Made by a program: the position numbers and the translations under genes
Shown here: piece after piece, positions 3,211-52,984 of the stretch
Layout of the letters: each line of letters begins with the position of its first letter
How positions within the stretch are numbered: position 1 is the first letter of the stretch
From: Clostridiaceae bacterium
GTDB lineage: Bacteria > Bacillota > Clostridia > TANB77 > CAG-508
Direction of reading: 5' to 3'
DNA: 64,000 nucleotides
NCBI GenBank assembly: GCA_021771025.1
Contig: JAETPW010000005.1
Location: 8,482-72,481 of the forward strand
Notes under the pieces: generated by a model
What the model saw: the letters and a program-made list of their open reading frames with translations, nothing else
Told to the model about the DNA's origin: nothing
The model's database searches: none

Positions 3211-4389
3211 TTATGAAGATTTAGAAGCTCGATAATCTCTATTTTCTTTTAAGACATGAAAAATAATACCAAGTAATTTTTGCTCTACTCCAGCTAAAGC
3301 AACATAATGATGCTTACCTTCTGCGCATTTTTTAACATAGTAATCGTGCATTACAGGATCGTTATTTGATGCAATAAAAGCTGCCTGATAAATAGCATGT
3401 CTTAAATAAGGAGAACCTCTTTTAGAAGTTTTCTCATCAGTAGATTTTTTATTGCCAGATTGATTTCCAGATGGGTCAATACCAGCAAAGGCTGTTAATT
3501 TACTTGGAGAGCTAAAATTATTAATATCTCCAATTTCAGCTAAAATAACAGGTGCAGTTGCTTTACCAACACCAGGTATACTTTCTAAATGACTATCAAG
3601 TTTAGAATATATTTCTTTGATTTTAAGTTCTAATTCATCTACTTGATTTTCAAGAAAAATAATTTGGTTTATGAGTTGCTTAATTTCAAAAGAACAAGCA
3701 TCTTCAGTAAATTTAATACCAAAAGAATTTTTAGCTAAATCTTTTACTTTACGTACAGTGTTGGTTCCATGCCTACTTTTAGAAGCTTTTTTAAGGAGAT
3801 TAGCAAGTTTTTTAGTATTAAAATTTACAACTTCGTTTGGAGTTGGGCAATTAAGCAAAATTTGTTTTGAAGCTTCACCAAATGTATCAGAAAATACATC
3901 TGAATATTCAGGGAAAACTTTGTTAAGGATGCCTTGAATTTGAGTTTTTGCTCTAGAGATATTATCAACTAAATTACTCCTATATCTAGTTAAATTCTTT
4001 AAAGCAAGTAAATCGTCATTAGGTAGATATGTTTGGTTGACACCATTAAAACTTAAAAAGTTAGCAATAATAATAGAATCAATAACATTGTTTTTTTGTT
4101 TACGATTAGAATAAGCACCTCTAAAAGATTTTATTTGATAAGGATTAAATACAGAAACATTAAACCCTTTAACAGTAAGAGAAGAAAATAGAGAAAGCCA
4201 ATAAGAGCCTGTAGCTTCCATAGCACAATAAATTTGAGATTGGTCATAATTTTTAATAGAGTCAATTAACTTTTGTAGTCCTTCATTAGAATTAGTAAAT
4301 TTAATAGCTTTTACTAAGATAGATCCATCTTCAGCAATTAGAGAAGCTACATGATTAACTTTAGCAATATCAATACCTAAATAAAACAT
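3211..4389 (-). mobile_element. IS110-family transposase, intact ORF
   Basis: N-terminal MFYLGIDIAKVNH (DEDD/RuvC-like) and C-terminal IS110-type domain, 392 aa. Confidence 0.8.
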
Positions 4390-9700: not shown

Positions 9701-10312
9701 TTATTTTATCGTATAAGTCATATTTATTTTAATTCCTTCTCTGAACAATACTTTATCAGTATTAGCATTTTTTCCAGAAATATTTGTTAATTCTAGACGG
9801 TTTTGTGATAAGATATCGAAAGTAAAATCAACTTCAACTGTTTTTGTTTCTGCTAATTCATCAGTTCTTTGGGTAGCTTTAGCAATGATTTGGTTGTTTT
9901 TAATAGAATATGTTCCTTTTAAATAAGCACCAAATCCCATGTAAATACTAAATTGATTATTATCTTGTAAAGTAATTCCACATTCTTCATTTGATATACC
10001 GGTTTCATTTTCAGTAGTAGGATGTTCAATGGTATAATTTCCTAATTTTGGACTAATAGTAGTAGAGTTTGTTATAGTATTATTGTTAGAAGTGTTAGAA
10101 GTGTTAGATGTATTAGCTGTATTTGATTGTAATTGGTCAACTTGATGTTGTAGTTGAGCTAAATTAGTTTCTAAACTATTAATTTTATTAAGATCTGCTT
10201 GTTTTTCATTATGCGAATAAGCAATAAGTAAACCAACAGATATTAATAAGATAATAATTAGAATAATGCTAATTACTGTACTAAGTCTAAGTTTAATCGG
10301 TTCTTTTTCCAT
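9701..10312 (-). CDS. Hypothetical membrane-anchored protein with (NTS)n repeat
   Basis: N-terminal TM helix, NTSNTSNTSNN low-complexity region. Confidence 0.4.
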   Translation of the reverse strand: MEKEPIKLRLSTVISIILIIILLISVGLLIAYSHNEKQADLNKINSLETNLAQLQHQVDQLQSNTANTSNTSNTSNNNTITNSTTISPKLGNYTIEHPTTENETGISNEECGITLQDNNQFSIYMGFGAYLKGTYSIKNNQIIAKATQRTDELAETKTVEVDFTFDILSQNRLELTNISGKNANTDKVLFREGIKINMTYTIK

Positions 10313-19217: not shown

Positions 19218-20453
19218 ATGTGGGGAGATATTGCCATTGCGTTTATCTTAGCATTTGTTGTTACCTTTGTCACAACACCCTATACGATAAAAATAGCTAA
19301 AAAAGTAGGAGCAGTAGATATTCCAAAAGATGAAAGAAGAATGCACAAAAAATCCATGCCAAAATTTGGTGGACCAGCGGTTATTATCGGTTTTTTAGTT
19401 TCCGCTATTTACCTATTAATCGTACTTAGTTTAGAGCATTCCATAAATTTATTTAATGTAGATCAATACGGCAAAAAACTACTCGGTTTTTTACTGGGAA
19501 TCTTAGTTATAGCAGCCTTTTGTATAGTAGATGATATCAAAACCATAAAACCAATCACTAAATTAATTGGTCAATTATTAGGAGCAATCATTGTAGTAGC
19601 ATCAGGTATACGAATTGAAGGAATAACTTTACCATTCTTCAATTTTCCTGAAATTCATCAAATTACATCAATTATCATTACACTAATATGGATTATCATC
19701 GTCACCAATGCCATTAACTTAATTGATGGGCTAGATGGACTATCATCAGGAATATCAGTAATATCAGCAGTTTCTTTAATGATTATCTTTGTTCTTAATG
19801 GTTCATCTATGGTATCGGTTATTTTAATCACAGCATTAGCAGGAGCCCTTGTTGGATTTTTACCCTTTAACTTTGCCCCTGCCAAAACCTTTATTGGAGA
19901 CACCGGCTCAAACTTTTTAGGATTTGCCCTAGCCATCATTTCCATTTTAGGCTCAGCAAAAACCTACACAGCAGCAGTCATCGTATTACCATTAATCGTA
20001 TTAGGACTACCAATCTTTGACACGATGATGGCAATCATCAGAAGAATCATCAAAGGAAAATCCCTAAAAGCAGTATTTAAAGCAGACAAAGGGCACTTAC
20101 ATCATCGAATTGTAGCCAGAGGATTTAGCCAAAAACAAGCCGTATTAATCTTATACGGAATCAGTGCAATATTTGGCATATTTGCTGTCATCTTAACCGA
20201 TAGTGGAATTTGGAAAGCTCTTTCTTTCCTACTTATCGTCATTGTAGCCATAGCCGTAGGGTACAAAAACTTTTCCCCAGAAAAAACAGGAAAAGAACGA
20301 TACGAGTGTGTACAATGCAAATACATCTATAACCCAAAATTCGGCAATGAAAAAGCAGGAATCAAGCCGGGAACAACTTTTGATGAACTTCCAGATGATT
20401 GGGTATGTCCTGTTTGTGGTGAAGGAAAAGATATGTTTGAACTTCACGAATAG
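19218..20453 (+). CDS. GT4 family undecaprenyl-phosphate GlcNAc-1-phosphate transferase (WecA/TagO/MraY-like) with C-terminal rubredoxin domain fusion
   Basis: [19 protein letters not shown] and [15 protein letters not shown] motifs; C-terminal [12 protein letters not shown]...[14 protein letters not shown] (2x CxxC rubredoxin). Confidence 0.7.
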
Positions 20454-20456
20454 AGG

Positions 20457-20520
20457 GTTCCCATTTTGGGGACGGGGTAAAAATAGGTAATTTTACCCAT
20501 TTTAGGGACAGGGTCAAAAT
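20457..20520. repeat. REP-like intergenic repeat (TTGGGGACGGGGTAAAA - hairpin - TTAGGGACAGGGT), copy A
   Basis: Near-identical copies at ~40883-40940 and ~49224-49285; variants at ~41075-41128 (inverted), ~17276-17340 and ~14053-14078. Confidence 0.7.
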
Positions 20521-20592
20521 TAAAAGTAACAAAATAAGGTATTAATTTGAACAAAAAAGTCTATATTAAATAAGAAAGGTGAGGTGGATATA

Positions 20593-20748
20593 ATGTACGT
20601 ATGTTTAGCATGTGGATATGTTTACGATCCAGAAAAAGGAGATCCAGATAGTGGGATTGCTCCAGGAACAGCTTTTGAAGATATTCCAGATACATGGGTA
20701 TGTCCAGTATGTGGAGTAGGAAAAGATATGTTTCAAAAACAAGATTAA
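20593..20748 (+). CDS. Rubredoxin (51 aa), not in the ORF track because it is under 60 aa
   Basis: [51 protein letters not shown]; SD GAAAGGTGAGGTGG. Confidence 0.8.
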
Positions 20749-20924
20749 GTAGAAAAAGAGATAAGAAATTCTTAAGGGTTTCTTATCTCTTTTTTTCAAG
20801 GGAAAAACTACTTTTCAAAAAGAAAATTGTGTGGTATACTATATCCATTCGAAAAGAAAAGGGAACAAAGGGCCAAAAATAATTTTCACCCATCCAGCCT
20901 AGGTAAGCTTTCAAAGTTTACTAA

Positions 20925-21093
20925 TATGAGGAAAGGGGGAATATGTTAGCTTTGAAAGCTGACATATGCTAGGAAATAAGGAGAAAGGATAGAAAATTTT
21001 TTCATCTATCCAGTGTAGGTAAATTTTCAACATTTATCAGTTTTAAGAAGGAGGAAATATGTTGGCTTTAAAGACTAACATATACTAAAAATT
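20925..21093 (+). promoter_or_regulatory. Two tandem copies (~120-bp unit) of an SD + 9-codon uORF + palindrome module directly upstream of 21094
   Basis: GAGGAAAGGGGGAATATGTTAGCTTTGAAAGCTGACATATGCTAG and AAGGAGGAAATATGTTGGCTTTAAAGACTAACATATACTAAaaattATG. Confidence 0.6.
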
Positions 21094-40850: not shown

Positions 40851-40882
40851 TAATTGCCAAATTGTTGCCAATTTGTTGCCAA

Positions 40883-40940
40883 TTTGGGGACGGGGTAAAA
40901 AATGGTAAAATTACCATATTAGGGACAAGGTGATAAAAGT
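40883..40940. repeat. REP-like repeat, copy B (preceded by the 3x 11-bp tandem TTGCCAATTTG)
   Basis: AATTTGGGGACGGGGTAAAAAATGGTAAAATTACCATATTAGGGACAAGGT. Confidence 0.7.
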
Positions 40941-42716: not shown

Positions 42717-43673
42717 ATGGGAAAAACATTCGGACTAACATGGGAAAATTTTTACCAAGAAAACATAGTAGCTTATTTGAAAAACCTAAACCAAAACCCA
42801 TTTGAATTAATTACAATTATTTTAGATTTAGCCATAGTACTATTTTTATTTTATTGTTTCTTTCGTGTAGTAAAAGGATCTAGAGCATGGCAATTATTAA
42901 AAGGCATTGCTTTATTGATTGTAGCAACTTGGGCAAGTAGTTTGCTTAACCTAAAAATAGTAAATGCCATTTTAACTGGTATTATGAACTGGGGAGTTAT
43001 TGCTATAATTGTGATCTTTCAGCCGGAACTAAGAAGAGCGTTAGAACAATTAGGTACCAATAAGTTTACTAAATTTTTTGGCATAGATAAAGATATAGCA
43101 ACAAAAACCAAGGAAGATATTTATAAAGTAGTCATTGCCGCAGAAGAATTAGCAAAAACAAAGACAGGGGCATTAATTGTACTAGAAAGGGATATTAATA
43201 TACAAGATATCATCGCTACAGGAGTTCCTATGCAAGCAGAAGTTTCTCCTCAGTTATTAGTTAATATTTTTGAACCTAAAACGCCTTTACATGATGGAGC
43301 TGTAGTCATTAGCAATAATAAAATAGCAGCGGCAGCCTGTGTACTTCCATTAGCCGATGATACAGATATTGCTAAAGAACTAGGCACTAGACATCGAGCA
43401 GCTATAGGAATATCCAAAGAATCAGATAGTATCGTAGTTGTTGTTTCAGAAGAGACAGGAAAGATTTCTGTAGCCAAAGACGGAACATTAATCGCTGATG
43501 TTAGAGAAGATGTATTAAAGAAAATTTTAATTACGAACATTGTTACTAAGCGATTTACGGTAGAAAGAAAAGTTCCTAAAGGTAGCTTTAAGAAATGGAA
43601 AGAAAAATGGAGAAAAGAGTCAAAATCTAAAGTAAAAACGGAAGGTAAAGAACAAAACAAAGATAAAGAATAA
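42717..43673 (+). CDS. cdaA: Diadenylate cyclase CdaA (DAC domain, N-terminal TM helices, Lys-rich tail)
   Basis: LHDGAVVI...[28 protein letters not shown]. Confidence 0.85.
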   Translation: [318 protein letters not shown]

Positions 43674-43719
43674 GTTTAGCTATCTTAAATGGAGTAAACT
43701 TTTAACCTTCACGAATACA

Positions 43720-43769
43720 AAGAAAAGAGGAAAAATGTTGGTTTTGAACACTAACATAGACTAGAAAAA
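43720..43769 (+). promoter_or_regulatory. Fourth copy of the uORF-palindrome module upstream of truA (uORF MLVLNTNID, stop 5 nt before the truA ATG)
   Basis: AAGAGGAAAAATGTTGGTTTTGAACACTAACATAGACTAGaaaaaATG. Confidence 0.55.
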
Positions 43770-44510
43770 ATGAGAAATATCAAATTAACCATTGAATATG
43801 ATGGCAAGGAATTTCATGGCTGGCAAAAACAGCCTAATAAACCAAATATTCAAGGAACCATAGAGCAAGCGATTAAACAAATTACAGGAGAAGAGGTAGA
43901 CTTATTTGCATCAGGAAGAACAGATGCTGGTGTACATGCTTTAGGGCAAGTAGCCAATTTTAAAACCAATTCTTCTGTACCAATGGATAAATGGTGTATT
44001 GCCCTAAACAGTATTCTCAAAAAATCCATTCGTATCAAACAAGCAGAAGAAGTAGAAGAACGATTTCATAGTCGATTGTCTTGTAAACGAAAAACCTATC
44101 GCTATGTAATTCGTTATTCAGAATGTAGTTCGGCTATTTATCGTCATTTAGAAACGCATATTCCCTATCCATTAAACATCGAAAATATGCAAAAAGCGGC
44201 ATCTTATTTAGAAGGAGAACATGATTTTAAATCATTTAAAGCAAGTGGAACAAGTAGTAAAAGTAGTATAAGGACGATTTATCAAGCAAAAGTGTTTTCT
44301 ATCGATGATGAGCGTATTGGAATAGAATTAACAGGAAATGGTTTTTTATATAATATGGTAAGAATTATTGCGGGAACATTAGTAGAAGTAGGCATGGGAA
44401 AAATTTCACCAGAGCAAATGAAAACCATAATCATGGCAAAAGATAGAAGCCTAGCAGGGAAAACATTGCCACCAGAAGGCTTATATTTAGTAAAAGTAGA
44501 ATATCAATAG
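43770..44510 (+). CDS. truA: tRNA pseudouridine(38-40) synthase
   Basis: MRNIKLTIEYDGKEFHGWQKQ...GRTDAGVHA; no own SD, preceded by a uORF module. Confidence 0.9.
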   Translation: MRNIKLTIEYDGKEFHGWQKQPNKPNIQGTIEQAIKQITGEEVDLFASGRTDAGVHALGQVANFKTNSSVPMDKWCIALNSILKKSIRIKQAEEVEERFHSRLSCKRKTYRYVIRYSECSSAIYRHLETHIPYPLNIENMQKAASYLEGEHDFKSFKASGTSSKSSIRTIYQAKVFSIDDERIGIELTGNGFLYNMVRIIAGTLVEVGMGKISPEQMKTIIMAKDRSLAGKTLPPEGLYLVKVEYQ

Positions 44511-49108: not shown

Positions 49109-49223
49109 AAAAAGTCCTTTCTCAAAATAAAATCCTTCTCTTATATTATCCTATAAAATGCTTAAAAAATCAAGGGTTTTTGGAATATTTGGTATAAAAA
49201 CTCACCTTCTTGCATATACTATT

Positions 49224-49285
49224 CCCAAATTGGGGACGGGGTAAAATTTGGTCATTTTACCATTTGGGGGACAGGGTAAAAGAAA
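49224..49285. repeat. REP-like repeat, copy D
   Basis: AAATTGGGGACGGGGTAAAATTTGGTCATTTTACCATTTGGGGGACAGGGTAAAAG. Confidence 0.7.
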
Positions 49286-51142: not shown

Positions 51143-52984
51143 TTATTCCACCGTAACTGATTTAGCCAAATTCCTTGGTTTATCCACATCCAATCCTTTT
51201 TCCTTTGAAATATAATAAGAAAGTAATTGTAAAGGAATAATTGACAAAATAGGGGAAATAAAAGCATTTGTATCTGGAATAAAGATTACTCGGTCAAATT
51301 GATTGGAGTTTATCTTTTGGTTTGTTACGATAAACGTTTTAGCTCCTCTAGTAACTACTTCTTGAATATTACTAATGGTTTTTTCCACTAAACGAGGATC
51401 AGTCATAATGCCAATAACAGTTATACCATTTTCAATTAAAGCAATTGGTCCATGTTTTAATTCACCCGCTGCGTAGCTTTCTGAATGGATATAGGAAATC
51501 TCTTTTAGTTTTAAAGAACCTTCTTTAGCTACACTTTCGTCAATTCCTCGGCCTAAGAAAAATACATCTTTTTCTTGATAAATTTTTCTAGCAAATTCTT
51601 GAATGGTTTCATTTTGTTTTAAGGTCTCTTCTATTTTTTTAGGCAAGGCTAAAAGGTCGCTTTTGAGTTCACTAAGAAGTGATGATTCACATCTACCTAA
51701 AATTTCTGCAAAATAAATGGCTAAAATAGTGATTAATACCACTTGAGAAGTATAAGCTTTCGTAGAAGCAACAGCGATTTCAGGGCCTGCATGGGTATAA
51801 ATAGAGTAGTCTGCTTCTCGCGTAATGGAACTTCCAATTACGTTAGAAATAGCAATTGTTTTTGCTCCTTTTGATTTAGCCAATTTTAAAGCAGCAATGG
51901 TATCAGCAGTTTCTCCTGATTGAGAAATGAAAACACATAAAGTATTTTCGTCAAGTAATGGGTCACGATAGCGAAATTCCGAAGCAATATCCACTTCTGC
52001 CGTTATGTGGCAAAGTTTTTCTATTGCATTTTTTCCGGCGATACCAGCGTGCATAGCTGTACCACAAGCAACAATATAGATTTTTTGGATTTTTTCTAGG
52101 TCTAACTTAGAAAAATGTAATTCTGACAATTCGCAGTTTCCTGTTAATGAAATGCGAGAACCAATCGTTTCACGAACTGCGTTAGGTTGTTCATAAATTT
52201 CTTTTAACATAAAATCTTCGAAGCCATCTTTTTCCGCAGCGGTTGCGTTCCATTCAATGGTTTGTGTTTTTTTATTTATTTCCACTAAATCAGAAGTATA
52301 GAACTTAGCTGAGGTTCTCGATAATACGGCAAACTCAAAATCTTCTAGTAAATAGAAGTTTCGGGTATACGAAAGAATAGCCGGAATATCAGAGGAAATA
52401 TAATTTTCCTCTTCGGTAGAACCAATGACCAAAGGGCTATCTTTACGAACAACAATCATATTGTCTGGATAATCACTAGAAATGACTTCAATCGCAAAAC
52501 TACCTTTTAAATCTAAACAGCTATTACGAACAGCACGTAAAAATTTTAGTTCATCTTGTTTAGGGTCTTTATGATAATAATAATCAATTAAATTAGGAAT
52601 CACTTCTGTATCTGTTTGAGACACAAAAGAATATCCGTTTTCTTCTAATAAGGTACGTAGTTCATGGTAATTTTCGATAATTCCATTATGAACTACACTA
52701 AAAGTTTTGGTTTTATTTTGGTGAGGGTGAGCATTTTCTTTAGATGGTTTTCCGTGAGTGGCCCATCTCGTATGAGCAATACCAATGGTTCCTTCTAATT
52801 CATCAATTCCTGTTATAGAAGCTAAATGGTTTACTCTTCCTTTATCTTTGATTAGGGATAAACCATTTTTTTCAACGGTTGAAATTCCAGCTGAATCATA
52901 CCCTCTATATTCTAAACGATTAAGCCCTGCTAATAAAATAGGGCAAGCTTTTTTCTTTCCTATGTAACCTACAATTCCACACAT
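51143..52984 (-). CDS. glmS: Glutamine--fructose-6-phosphate aminotransferase
   Basis: MCGIVGYIG N-terminal nucleophile, SIS domains. Confidence 0.95.
   Translation of the reverse strand: MCGIVGYIGKKKACPILLAGLNRLEYRGYDSAGISTVEKNGLSLIKDKGRVNHLASITGIDELEGTIGIAHTRWATHGKPSKENAHPHQNKTKTFSVVHNGIIENYHELRTLLEENGYSFVSQTDTEVIPNLIDYYYHKDPKQDELKFLRAVRNSCLDLKGSFAIEVISSDYPDNMIVVRKDSPLVIGSTEEENYISSDIPAILSYTRNFYLLEDFEFAVLSRTSAKFYTSDLVEINKKTQTIEWNATAAEKDGFEDFMLKEIYEQPNAVRETIGSRISLTGNCELSELHFSKLDLEKIQKIYIVACGTAMHAGIAGKNAIEKLCHITAEVDIASEFRYRDPLLDENTLCVFISQSGETADTIAALKLAKSKGAKTIAISNVIGSSITREADYSIYTHAGPEIAVASTKAYTSQVVLITILAIYFAEILGRCESSLLSELKSDLLALPKKIEETLKQNETIQEFARKIYQEKDVFFLGRGIDESVAKEGSLKLKEISYIHSESYAAGELKHGPIALIENGITVIGIMTDPRLVEKTISNIQEVVTRGAKTFIVTNQKINSNQFDRVIFIPDTNAFISPILSIIPLQLLSYYISKEKGLDVDKPRNLAKSVTVE

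Follow-up and report, generated by a model that had tools for sequence, protein, structure and literature searches.

A candidate start-site insertion repeat with its own ribosome-binding site and a hairpin-buried mini-ORF in uncultured gut Clostridia

Copies and anatomy of the repeat

In a 64,000-nt stretch of DNA from a Clostridiaceae bacterium (assembly GCA_021771025.1, contig JAETPW010000005.1, positions 8,482 to 72,481; this whole stretch is referred to as the window), we analyzed a short interspersed repeat that carries a Shine-Dalgarno sequence (SD), usually a small upstream open reading frame (uORF), and a hairpin. Five copies, designated c1 to c5, were found, all on the sense (+) strand, which also holds every copy part, junction repeat, host start codon, and promoter-like site whose coordinates are given below. 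Copies c2 to c5 end 4–5 nt short of the start codons of genes for an unclassified 406-aa protein, Hsp33 (hslO), TruA (truA), and an Hpt-like phosphoribosyltransferase (hpt), respectively. An initial annotation of this DNA had described four copies of a module of 50–65 bp placed directly before start codons. All four copies were recovered at the places given there, but the total was too low, as a fifth copy with GTG...CAC in place of ATG...CAT was found before hpt. The unit was also longer, at about 86–93 nt per copy including a conserved 5' half, and alignment of the flanks showed that similarity reaches about 60 nt further upstream than had been reported. Placement directly before a start codon held for c2 to c5 but not for c1, behind which no start codon is present and which is followed by c2 about 20 nt downstream.

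The repeat is genuine, and its occurrence lies far beyond chance expectation. The degenerate palindrome ATGTTRGYTTTRAAVRCTRACAT had three exact matches on the + strand of the window, compared with 0.03 expected from shuffled sequences. A search of the window with nhmmer returned five full-length matches (E values of 7e-29 to 9e-19), the next match (E = 0.014) being the palindrome on the minus strand. With a covariance model, c1 to c5 scored 66–84 bits and everything else in the window scored 21 bits or less, with an ordinary SD-ATG region as the runner-up at 21 bits. Pairwise identity among the copies was 65–80%. Together with copies from other genomes described below, nine distinct copies from seven loci in three lineages were compared. 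Rfam returned nothing on the module, either for the whole window at the gathering score or for positions 20700–22500 at E values up to 10, and the sole gathering-score match in the window was glmS.

Copy c1 (92 nt, 20881..20972; 83.6 bits with the covariance model) contains the SD GGGGG (20935–20939), a uORF that extends from an ATG at 20943 to a TAG at 20970–20972 (MLALKADIC), and a hairpin at 20943–20965. All five copies were detected with both nhmmer and the covariance model. Copy c2 (91 nt, 20998..21088) contains the SD AGGAGG (21049–21054), a uORF at 21059–21088 (MLALKTNIY, with the stop codon TAA), and a hairpin at 21059–21081, and the ATG of the 406-aa gene (21094) lies 5 nt past the uORF stop. 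Copy c3 (86 nt, 22332..22417) is degenerate: the SD GGGGG (22382–22386) is followed by ATG-TAG (22389–22394) as a result of a 1-nt deletion, by a hairpin at 22389–22410, and by a vestigial TAG (22415–22417), and the ATG of hslO is at 22422 with AGGA in front of it. Copy c4 (93 nt, 43672..43764) lies between a cdaA-like gene and truA, with the SD AGAGG at 43726–43730, a uORF at 43735–43764 (MLVLNTNID), and the truA ATG at 43770. Copy c5 (87 nt, 54780..54866) lies in the 5' untranslated region (UTR) of hpt, with the SD AGGGG at 54828–54832, a uORF from a GTG at 54837 to a TAG at 54864–54866 (MLISKVNTG), and the hpt ATG at 54872; its hairpin, within the uORF, reads GTGTTAA...TTAACAC and shows a compensatory A-T to G-C change. 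A promoter-like site with an extended TG (TTTTCA-17-TATACT, 20812..20840) would make c1 and c2 part of the 406-aa gene's 5' UTR, and a consensus-like promoter (TTGAAA-17-TATAAT, 54728..54756) would put c5 in that of hpt. A promoter search inside the copies yielded no promoter-like site.

Read from its 5' side, the unit holds AATTTTCAYCCATCC, a pyrimidine box that resembles an anti-SD sequence, followed by TAGGTAA, a small hairpin closing in TTTAC, and an A-rich stretch. Stop codons are present in all three frames of this 5' half, but we discarded them as a design feature given that they are uninformative in A-T-rich sequence. The SDs of the element are strong (AAAGGGGG, AAGGAGG, or AAGAGG) and are separated by only 3–4 nt from an ATG or GTG that forms the first base pairs of a stem of 8–12 bp. 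The stem is followed by TAG or TAA, in frame in six of the nine copies, and then by four to six A residues and the host start codon. The main anatomical features reported in the initial annotation were thus reproduced, including the strong SD ahead of an ATG at the base of a palindrome, the three intact 9-codon uORFs of c1, c2, and c4, the collapsed uORF and AGGA before hslO, and the uORF stop 5 nt before the true start, which was seen at the 406-aa gene and truA and also at hpt. The absence of an SD at truA and the 406-aa gene likewise stood: neither these two genes nor hpt has an SD within 15 nt of the start, and that of hslO is the weak AGGA, whereas the 54 start contexts listed for the window mostly show an AGGAGG-like SD located 6–10 nt upstream of the start. 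The 406-aa protein had no match in Pfam, NCBIfam, or PDB, and its earlier label of 'GT-A' is unverified.

The hairpin at the uORF start, with a computed free energy of –5 to –14 kcal/mol at 37°C, is conserved. Across eight distinct copies, 89.5% of cells were paired, compared with 33–45% in controls with slid partners. Four of the base pairs show compensatory changes, including that from ATG/CAT to GTG/CAC in c5, and a T-A to C-G compensatory change was found in the stem between c4 and an orthologous copy in a relative (L068). Checking for covariation across copies and relatives, as the initial annotation had proposed, showed the hairpin to be kept. Ten of the hairpin cells are G·U, which would pair on the sense strand only and give A·C on the other strand; together with the fixed orientation of the copies, these cells point to a feature of the RNA, on the sense strand. 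When the copies were folded with their real flanks, the uORF start was predicted to be paired in all cases (unpaired probability of 0.00–0.07). The unpaired probability of the element SD was 0.72–0.85 in c2, c3, and c5, 0.27 in c1, and 0.31 in c4, and that of the 12 nt upstream of the host ATG was 0.63–0.95 in c2, c4, and c5 and 0.35 in c3.

Adding the 5' hairpin and a helix between the pyrimidine box and the SD gave a three-helix model with 83% of cells paired, compared with about 40% in slid controls, and with a covariation score above those of all 500 shuffles. Given that this structure was derived from one copy and that the sequences are related, its support is soft and we treat it as a lead only. 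The pyrimidine box–SD helix (P1) had only 72% of cells paired, and in c2, c4, and c5 the pyrimidine box can alternatively pair with the orphaned native SD in competition with P1, so that P1 may form but is one of two predicted pairings. Folding of whole copies was mostly unremarkable, with z-scores of –0.6 to 0.0 for three of the five copies.

Filled and empty sites, junctions, and distribution

Relatives provided comparisons between filled and empty sites. The locus L018 is syntenic with the window at hslO and the 406-aa gene (Hsp33 85% identical) and has no module at either; hslO is preceded by plain GGAGGAAACCATG / TAGgaggaaaccATG / TAGgaggaaaccATGaaagac, and the 406-aa gene by AGGGAGAATTTATG / agggagaatttATG / atagggagaatttATGgaaagt. 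At truA, an orthologous copy of 93 nt is present in L068 to L070 (TruA 90% identical), whereas the site is empty in L071 to L073 (TruA 88% identical), in which the cdaA stop overlaps the truA start (aaagaggaaaaATGAgaaat) in a native ATGA coupling. Identity at third codon positions was 0.72 between the window and L068, 0.70 between the window and L071, and 0.65 between L068 and L071, values that fit a single insertion in an ancestor shared by the window species and L068. A related copy also lies directly before dnaJ in L008, a metagenome-assembled genome (MAG) of rabbit-gut Clostridia, and the corresponding site is empty in its relatives L036 to L040 (five loci, three protein clusters, DnaJ 86–91% identical), whose dnaJ leaders are all plain GGAGG-N5-7-ATG. 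With empty sites in relatives at every comparable locus, the repeat represents a lineage-specific insertion rather than a conserved regulatory leader. This insertion history is well supported by the comparisons, which are the decisive evidence and also favor one of the two readings offered in the initial annotation, that of a REP/BOX-like mobile module carrying a ribosome-binding site (RBS). The c4 copy and its orthologue in L068 are about 70% identical overall and about 80% identical in the core from the SD to the stop, and the synonymous third positions of the flanking genes are 70–76% identical.

The junctions of c3 read ...GAAAAAT|AATTTTCAGC...GGATAGAAAAAT|GAAAGAT and those of c4 read ...AAAGAAT|AAGTTTAGC...CTAGAAAAAAT|GAGAAAT, with the empty site for the latter being GAGGAAAAAT-GAGAAAT. 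Direct reading of the sequence showed GAAAAAT at the left junction of c3 (22325..22331) and again at the right (22417–22423), where it ends in the AT of the hslO ATG and gives the appearance of a 7-bp target duplication; the corresponding repeats of c4 are AAAGAAT (43665–43671) and AAAAAAT (43765–43771). The junctions of c2 are offset by 1 nt upstream (GAAAAT|...|AAAAAT|TATGG), and c1 occupies a similar A-rich site. At the two best-resolved loci, the element splits the original start codon, with AT on its left and G on its right, in the A-rich target GAAAAAT^G, and the simplest reading of the junctions is insertion at this point with an apparent duplication of 6–7 bp; alternatively, the 3' end of the element is itself A5-6T. 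The left target copy together with the first AA of the element yields ATAA, with the result that the old ATG is lost and the overlapping TGA at cdaA/truA becomes TAA, and the right target copy together with the native G rebuilds the ATG. The TAA stop of cdaA (43671–43673) consists of the last flank base and the first two bases of c4. Insertion at AT^G would thus account for the left junctions all being ATAA or ATAG without the need for independent G-to-A mutations, for the origin of the cdaA stop from a junction, and for the A-rich spacer that always precedes the host ATG. Insertion inside the start codon also leaves the native SD stranded about 100 nt upstream.

The known range of the element is limited to a narrow clade of gut Clostridia that are uncultured and low in GC. 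A scan of GTDB with a strict 3' pattern and one genome per species, in which the genome of the window was not included, gave 17 matches, a number close to chance expectation, and only that in L008 was genuine. A first scan of metagenomes gave no matches and a second gave 13, of which only that in L048 was genuine; the gene behind this copy is tsaC/Sua5-like and starts with TTG, and the uORF of the copy has three codons. The other matches of the second scan were to an unrelated interspersed repeat (GGTTCTATGTTAAAATAAAACACTAACA...), which was seen in the JGI metagenome contigs L042, L043, L045, L047, L049, L051, and L052 and occurs as several copies with inverted partners in contigs of 42–48% GC. 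A scan of viral sequences gave four matches, about the chance number for the pattern, and a search for small ORFs spanning the element, as a route to further copies, found no usable ORF. Logan assemblies and a single JGI contig were the only places where the window species appeared; among named organisms, it is closest to 'Clostridia bacterium' MAGs and Clostridium sp. CAG:575, and the GC content of the window is 31.7%. In L008, an unclassified 216-aa ORF (3251–3901, minus strand) lies between dnaK and dnaJ and was seen at none of the five relative loci examined; the left junction of the module creates its TAG stop, and the gene and module may have arrived together.

Strain contigs revealed variation at the filled sites. 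The Logan contigs break off within the element, both at 45 nt ahead of hslO and in c1. Two alleles of hslO were found, one with the degenerate c3 and the other with an intact copy, which encodes the uORF MLALKANIC and shares 95% identity with c1 and only about 80% with c3, even though the hslO DNA is 99.1% identical between strains. The presence of a c1-like copy beside a nearly identical hslO indicates recombination or conversion between copies. Gene callers start the hslO of this c1-like allele at an in-frame ATG inside the element (ACATATGCTAGGAAAAATG; position 46 of L026 to L031, corresponding to window 22410–22424), with the protein being annotated as 300 aa rather than 296 aa, or four codons too long. 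Copy c5 was identical in 10 strain contigs. In L055, L066, and L067, the stop of the c4 uORF is changed from TAG to AAG, and the uORF ends instead at a TGA that overlaps the truA ATG (ATGA), so that the coupling geometry is kept.

Translation of host genes and competing explanations

The best explanation, and one that we consider probable, is a short, nonautonomous interspersed element that inserts at start sites in the 'polite' manner of MIRU and REP2 repeats and whose SD and uORF sustain translation of the host gene. The element brings a strong new SD, places a start codon at the base of a hairpin, and in most cases adds a 9-codon ORF ending 4–5 nt before the rebuilt ATG, and these parts, including the hairpin, probably keep the host genes translated. 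Ribosomes would load at the element SD, open the hairpin, translate the mini-ORF, terminate beside the host ATG, and reinitiate there. Through such termination-reinitiation, housekeeping genes left without an SD would tolerate the insertion. The position at start codons would reflect both a target preference for an A-rich spacer plus ATG and the purging of insertions elsewhere; AAAAATG occurs 68 times in the window, mostly within genes, and target preference alone is therefore insufficient, with purging of disruptive insertions having to contribute. The hairpin may be needed for mobilization, for translation, or for both, and any thermal or other regulatory gating by it would be incidental, as a side effect. 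Termination-reinitiation had already been proposed in the initial annotation, and the anatomy suits it, with three hosts lacking an SD and a stop-start gap of 4–5 nt, but the proposal is weakened by three broken uORF frames.

Several observations weigh against this explanation. The uORF frame is broken in three of the nine copies although the hairpin is kept: in addition to the ATG-TAG of c3 and the 3-codon uORF of L048, the copy in L068 has a 1-nt insertion that yields MFSFES*, a 6-codon uORF ending 14 nt upstream of the ATG. The 9-codon ORF is thus no strict requirement, and what persists among the copies is the SD, the start codon, and the hairpin rather than the exact frame. The spacing of 3–4 nt between the SD and the uORF start is suboptimal for initiation, compared with 5–10 nt at typical SD-bearing genes of the window. 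The apparent target duplication consists of A-rich, low-complexity sequence, matches at only four of seven bases in c5, and is unclear at L008. Terminal inverted repeats were not found, with the score being no better than that of shuffles in four of the five copies, and no mobilizing enzyme or mechanism was identified. Given the divergence among the copies, recent transposition is also not shown.

A split RBS is the main mechanistic rival, and one that we regard as unlikely. In such a site, the folded hairpin would hide a decoy ATG and shorten the distance between the element SD and the host ATG, and the host gene would be initiated from that SD without translation of the uORF; hairpin-bridged sites of this kind have a precedent in genes 38 and 25 of phage T4. 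Conservation of the hairpin through compensatory changes but not of the uORF frame is in line with such a site, as are the constant distance from the hairpin to the host ATG, an SD-to-uORF spacing that is too short, and the prediction of a paired uORF ATG together with, in three of the five contexts, a mostly unpaired SD. The closed stem would, however, leave about 11–16 nt between the SD and the host ATG, compared with about 5–10 nt at typical window genes, and both the in-frame stop 4–5 nt before the host ATG in six of the nine copies and the ATGA overlap of the TAG-to-AAG variant are a better fit to coupling.

A regulon-type cis-regulatory RNA (a thermometer, a switch gated by a protein or small RNA, or a riboswitch), in which the hairpin and the anti-SD-like pyrimidine box would gate translation, is less probable still. 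Copies stand before hslO in the window and before dnaJ in L008, the A-U-rich stems lose about 5–6 kcal/mol in computed stability from 30° to 45°C, the truA copy has been retained since the divergence of two species, and the three-helix model performed well against its controls and shuffles, although with the soft support already noted. Sister species nevertheless lack the module at the corresponding genes (three loci here, one in the L008 lineage), the orthologous hslO and dnaJ leaders included; the remaining hosts (truA, hpt, a tsaC-like gene, and one gene without an assigned function) share no function; c1 lies away from any gene start; no Rfam match was obtained even at the relaxed E value; folding z-scores are unremarkable in three of the five copies; and the orthologous copy has diverged to about the same extent as synonymous sites. 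The suggestion in the initial annotation of an RNA thermometer or protein-gated switch was therefore not supported, given the empty sites, the mixed hosts, the nearly synonymous rate of evolution, and the lack of an Rfam family. Very improbable is a palindrome that acts at the DNA level, as the operator of a dimeric regulator or as a recombinase site similar to CIRCE or dif. The core TGTTAGC-N7-GCTAACA is a near-perfect inverted repeat, and its outer bases look similar to the ends of CIRCE (TTAGC...GCTAA). Its asymmetries, however, are mostly G·T on the sense strand (corresponding to the 10 G·U cells), and the copies are co-oriented with the gene at a fixed distance from the start codon and with an SD alongside. 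We rejected CIRCE and dif themselves because the 7-nt spacing and the arms are unlike those of CIRCE (9-N9-9) and the orientation of the arms is opposite to that of dif.

A bolder version of the insertion reading is also doubtful. It would posit a previously undescribed class of start codon–targeting mobile elements in Firmicutes, with machinery that recognizes GAAAAAT^G and splits the start codon and with the element serving as a self-contained translation relay. The parts of this relay would be the TAA that closes an overlapping upstream gene, the anti-SD-like box that silences the orphaned native SD, the new SD, and the hairpin-gated mini-ORF that passes ribosomes on to the rebuilt ATG. Each host gene would then gain structure- or temperature-dependent translational control through the A-U-rich hairpin, and housekeeping and chaperone genes would be rewired into a common posttranscriptional response.

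If the model of an insertion element with a coupled mini-ORF holds, the repeat would be a natural, portable "bicistronic RBS" able to insert into an essential gene's start codon and, by rebuilding the stop, the start, and the delivery of ribosomes, to be harmless even at an ATGA-coupled gene. It would also provide a clean natural test case for termination-reinitiation versus hairpin-bridged initiation. As practical consequences, short-read assemblies break at gene starts, gene callers are misled, and the repeat can be confused with a riboswitch-like leader.

Neighboring features and known systems

A second repeat family in the window consists of REPIN-like palindromes, TTGGGGACGGGGTAAAA...TTTTACC...AGGGACAGGGT, that are unrelated to the module and lie at 20458–20520, 40876–40938, and 49222–49284. 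In the strain contig L079, such palindromes (2380–2466 and 3319–3440) flank, as inverted copies, a 283-aa Y1/RAYT-like transposase gene inserted after hslO, which scored 28.5 bits with Pfam Y1_Tnp and 62 bits with NCBIfam REP_Tyr_transpos, the latter below the cutoff of 80. We considered this transposase as the mobilizer of the module and rejected it, since its flanking repeats (GGGGACGGGG/AGGGACAGGG) belong to the other family and share no sequence with the module. Related GGGAC palindromes are present between dnaK and dnaJ in the Clostridia contigs L037 to L040, at about 9880–9990.

Other features of the window include a glmS ribozyme (Rfam RF00234, 89.5 bits) at 53034–53184 on the minus strand, upstream of a glmS-like gene at 51143–52984. 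A gene annotated as a 'transposase' of the PD-(D/E)XK type (Rpn-like, PF12784; 53344–54195, minus strand) is divergent from the c5-bearing hpt leader, and no link between it and the module was found. The gene at 19218–20453 encodes a GT4 glycosyltransferase with a COOH-terminal rubredoxin domain and is followed by a gene for a stand-alone rubredoxin (20590–20750); the 3' ends of the two share a stretch of 86 nt that is 79% identical (20367–20452 versus 20662–20747). An RluA-type pseudouridine synthase gene (PF00849) is split into overlapping ORFs at 59900–60265 and 60234–60590; gene calls in most strain contigs spanning it (L056 to L063) show this split too, which could reflect either a fixed or a programmed frameshift or mark a pseudogene.

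Among known systems, the closest are the MIRUs and the REP2 and IR repeats described below; for the MIRUs, the source study is reportedly that of Supply et al. in 1997. MIRUs are repeats of 40–100 bp in operons and leaders that are co-oriented with genes, insert at start codons, and occur as tandem copies (PMC12548453, PMC3184786), and an internal ORF has been proposed to keep the host gene translationally coupled (PMC12548453). The present element shares with them the filled and empty sites in relatives (at the hslO, 406-aa, truA, and dnaJ loci), an internal small ORF, a tandem pair (c1–c2), co-orientation, and insertion at start codons, with six independent loci ending 4–5 nt before the host start and with direct repeats at the junctions that, being A-rich, are only suggestive. 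It differs in that the MIRU ORF overlaps the host start by 4 nt, whereas here the gap is +4 to +5 nt with overlap only in the TAG-to-AAG variant, and in that the upstream stop is the left-junction TAA rather than one that overlaps the uORF start. Further differences are the strong SD of its own, the start codon hidden in a hairpin, and a conserved 5' half in which an anti-SD-like pyrimidine box is accompanied by a second hairpin. No sequence homology is to be expected between Clostridia of 31.7% GC and high-GC Mycobacterium.

In the REP2 (CREN) repeats of Neisseria and the IR repeats of Borrelia, an RBS and an ATG stand directly before genes, and these repeats have two stem-loops and no terminal inverted repeats (PMC3184786). 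The present element likewise lacks terminal inverted repeats, lies directly upstream of ORFs, and carries an RBS; in REP2, however, the ATG is the host start and a promoter lies inside, whereas here a separate mini-ORF precedes a rebuilt host ATG and no promoter-like site was found inside the copies. In integrons, experiments have shown that ORF-11 and ORF-18, located 2–62 bp upstream, drive cassettes with no translation initiation region (PMC8876359), which provides a precedent for the mechanism proposed here. They resemble the mini-ORF as short nonfunctional ORFs with their own SD that drive SD-less genes by reinitiation, and they also work from 45–62 bp (PMC8876359). They are fixed in attI1 of class 1 integrons, with the cassettes being the mobile part, and have no hairpin over the start codon. 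In the synthetic bicistronic design (BCD) RBS cassettes reportedly introduced by Mutalik et al. in 2013, a portable leader cistron with its own SD similarly delivers ribosomes and insulates the gene from its context, but BCDs are engineered, with a second SD in the leader and a stop/start overlap, whereas the present element has no second SD and a gap of 4–5 nt.

REP and REPIN sequences are also short, hairpin-forming interspersed repeats, but REPs are GC-rich, are usually located downstream of genes, and have a GTAG-type 5' motif, whereas this element is A-T rich, lies at gene starts, and carries an SD and an ORF. The apparent duplication would suit a MITE derived from a DDE transposon, but the lack of terminal inverted repeats does not. 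Nor does the arrangement correspond to translation attenuation of the cat/erm type, given that the hairpin lies inside the uORF and hides the start of the uORF itself and that three hosts have no SD to sequester. If the insertion model holds, the idea embodied by MIRU and REP2 would extend to uncultured gut Clostridia in a different design, with its own SD, a hairpin-masked start, and a gap of up to +5 nt. The element is best filed as a new start-site insertion repeat, with an SD-driven, hairpin-buried mini-ORF and a +4/+5-nt gap, of a kind known from MIRU and REP2.

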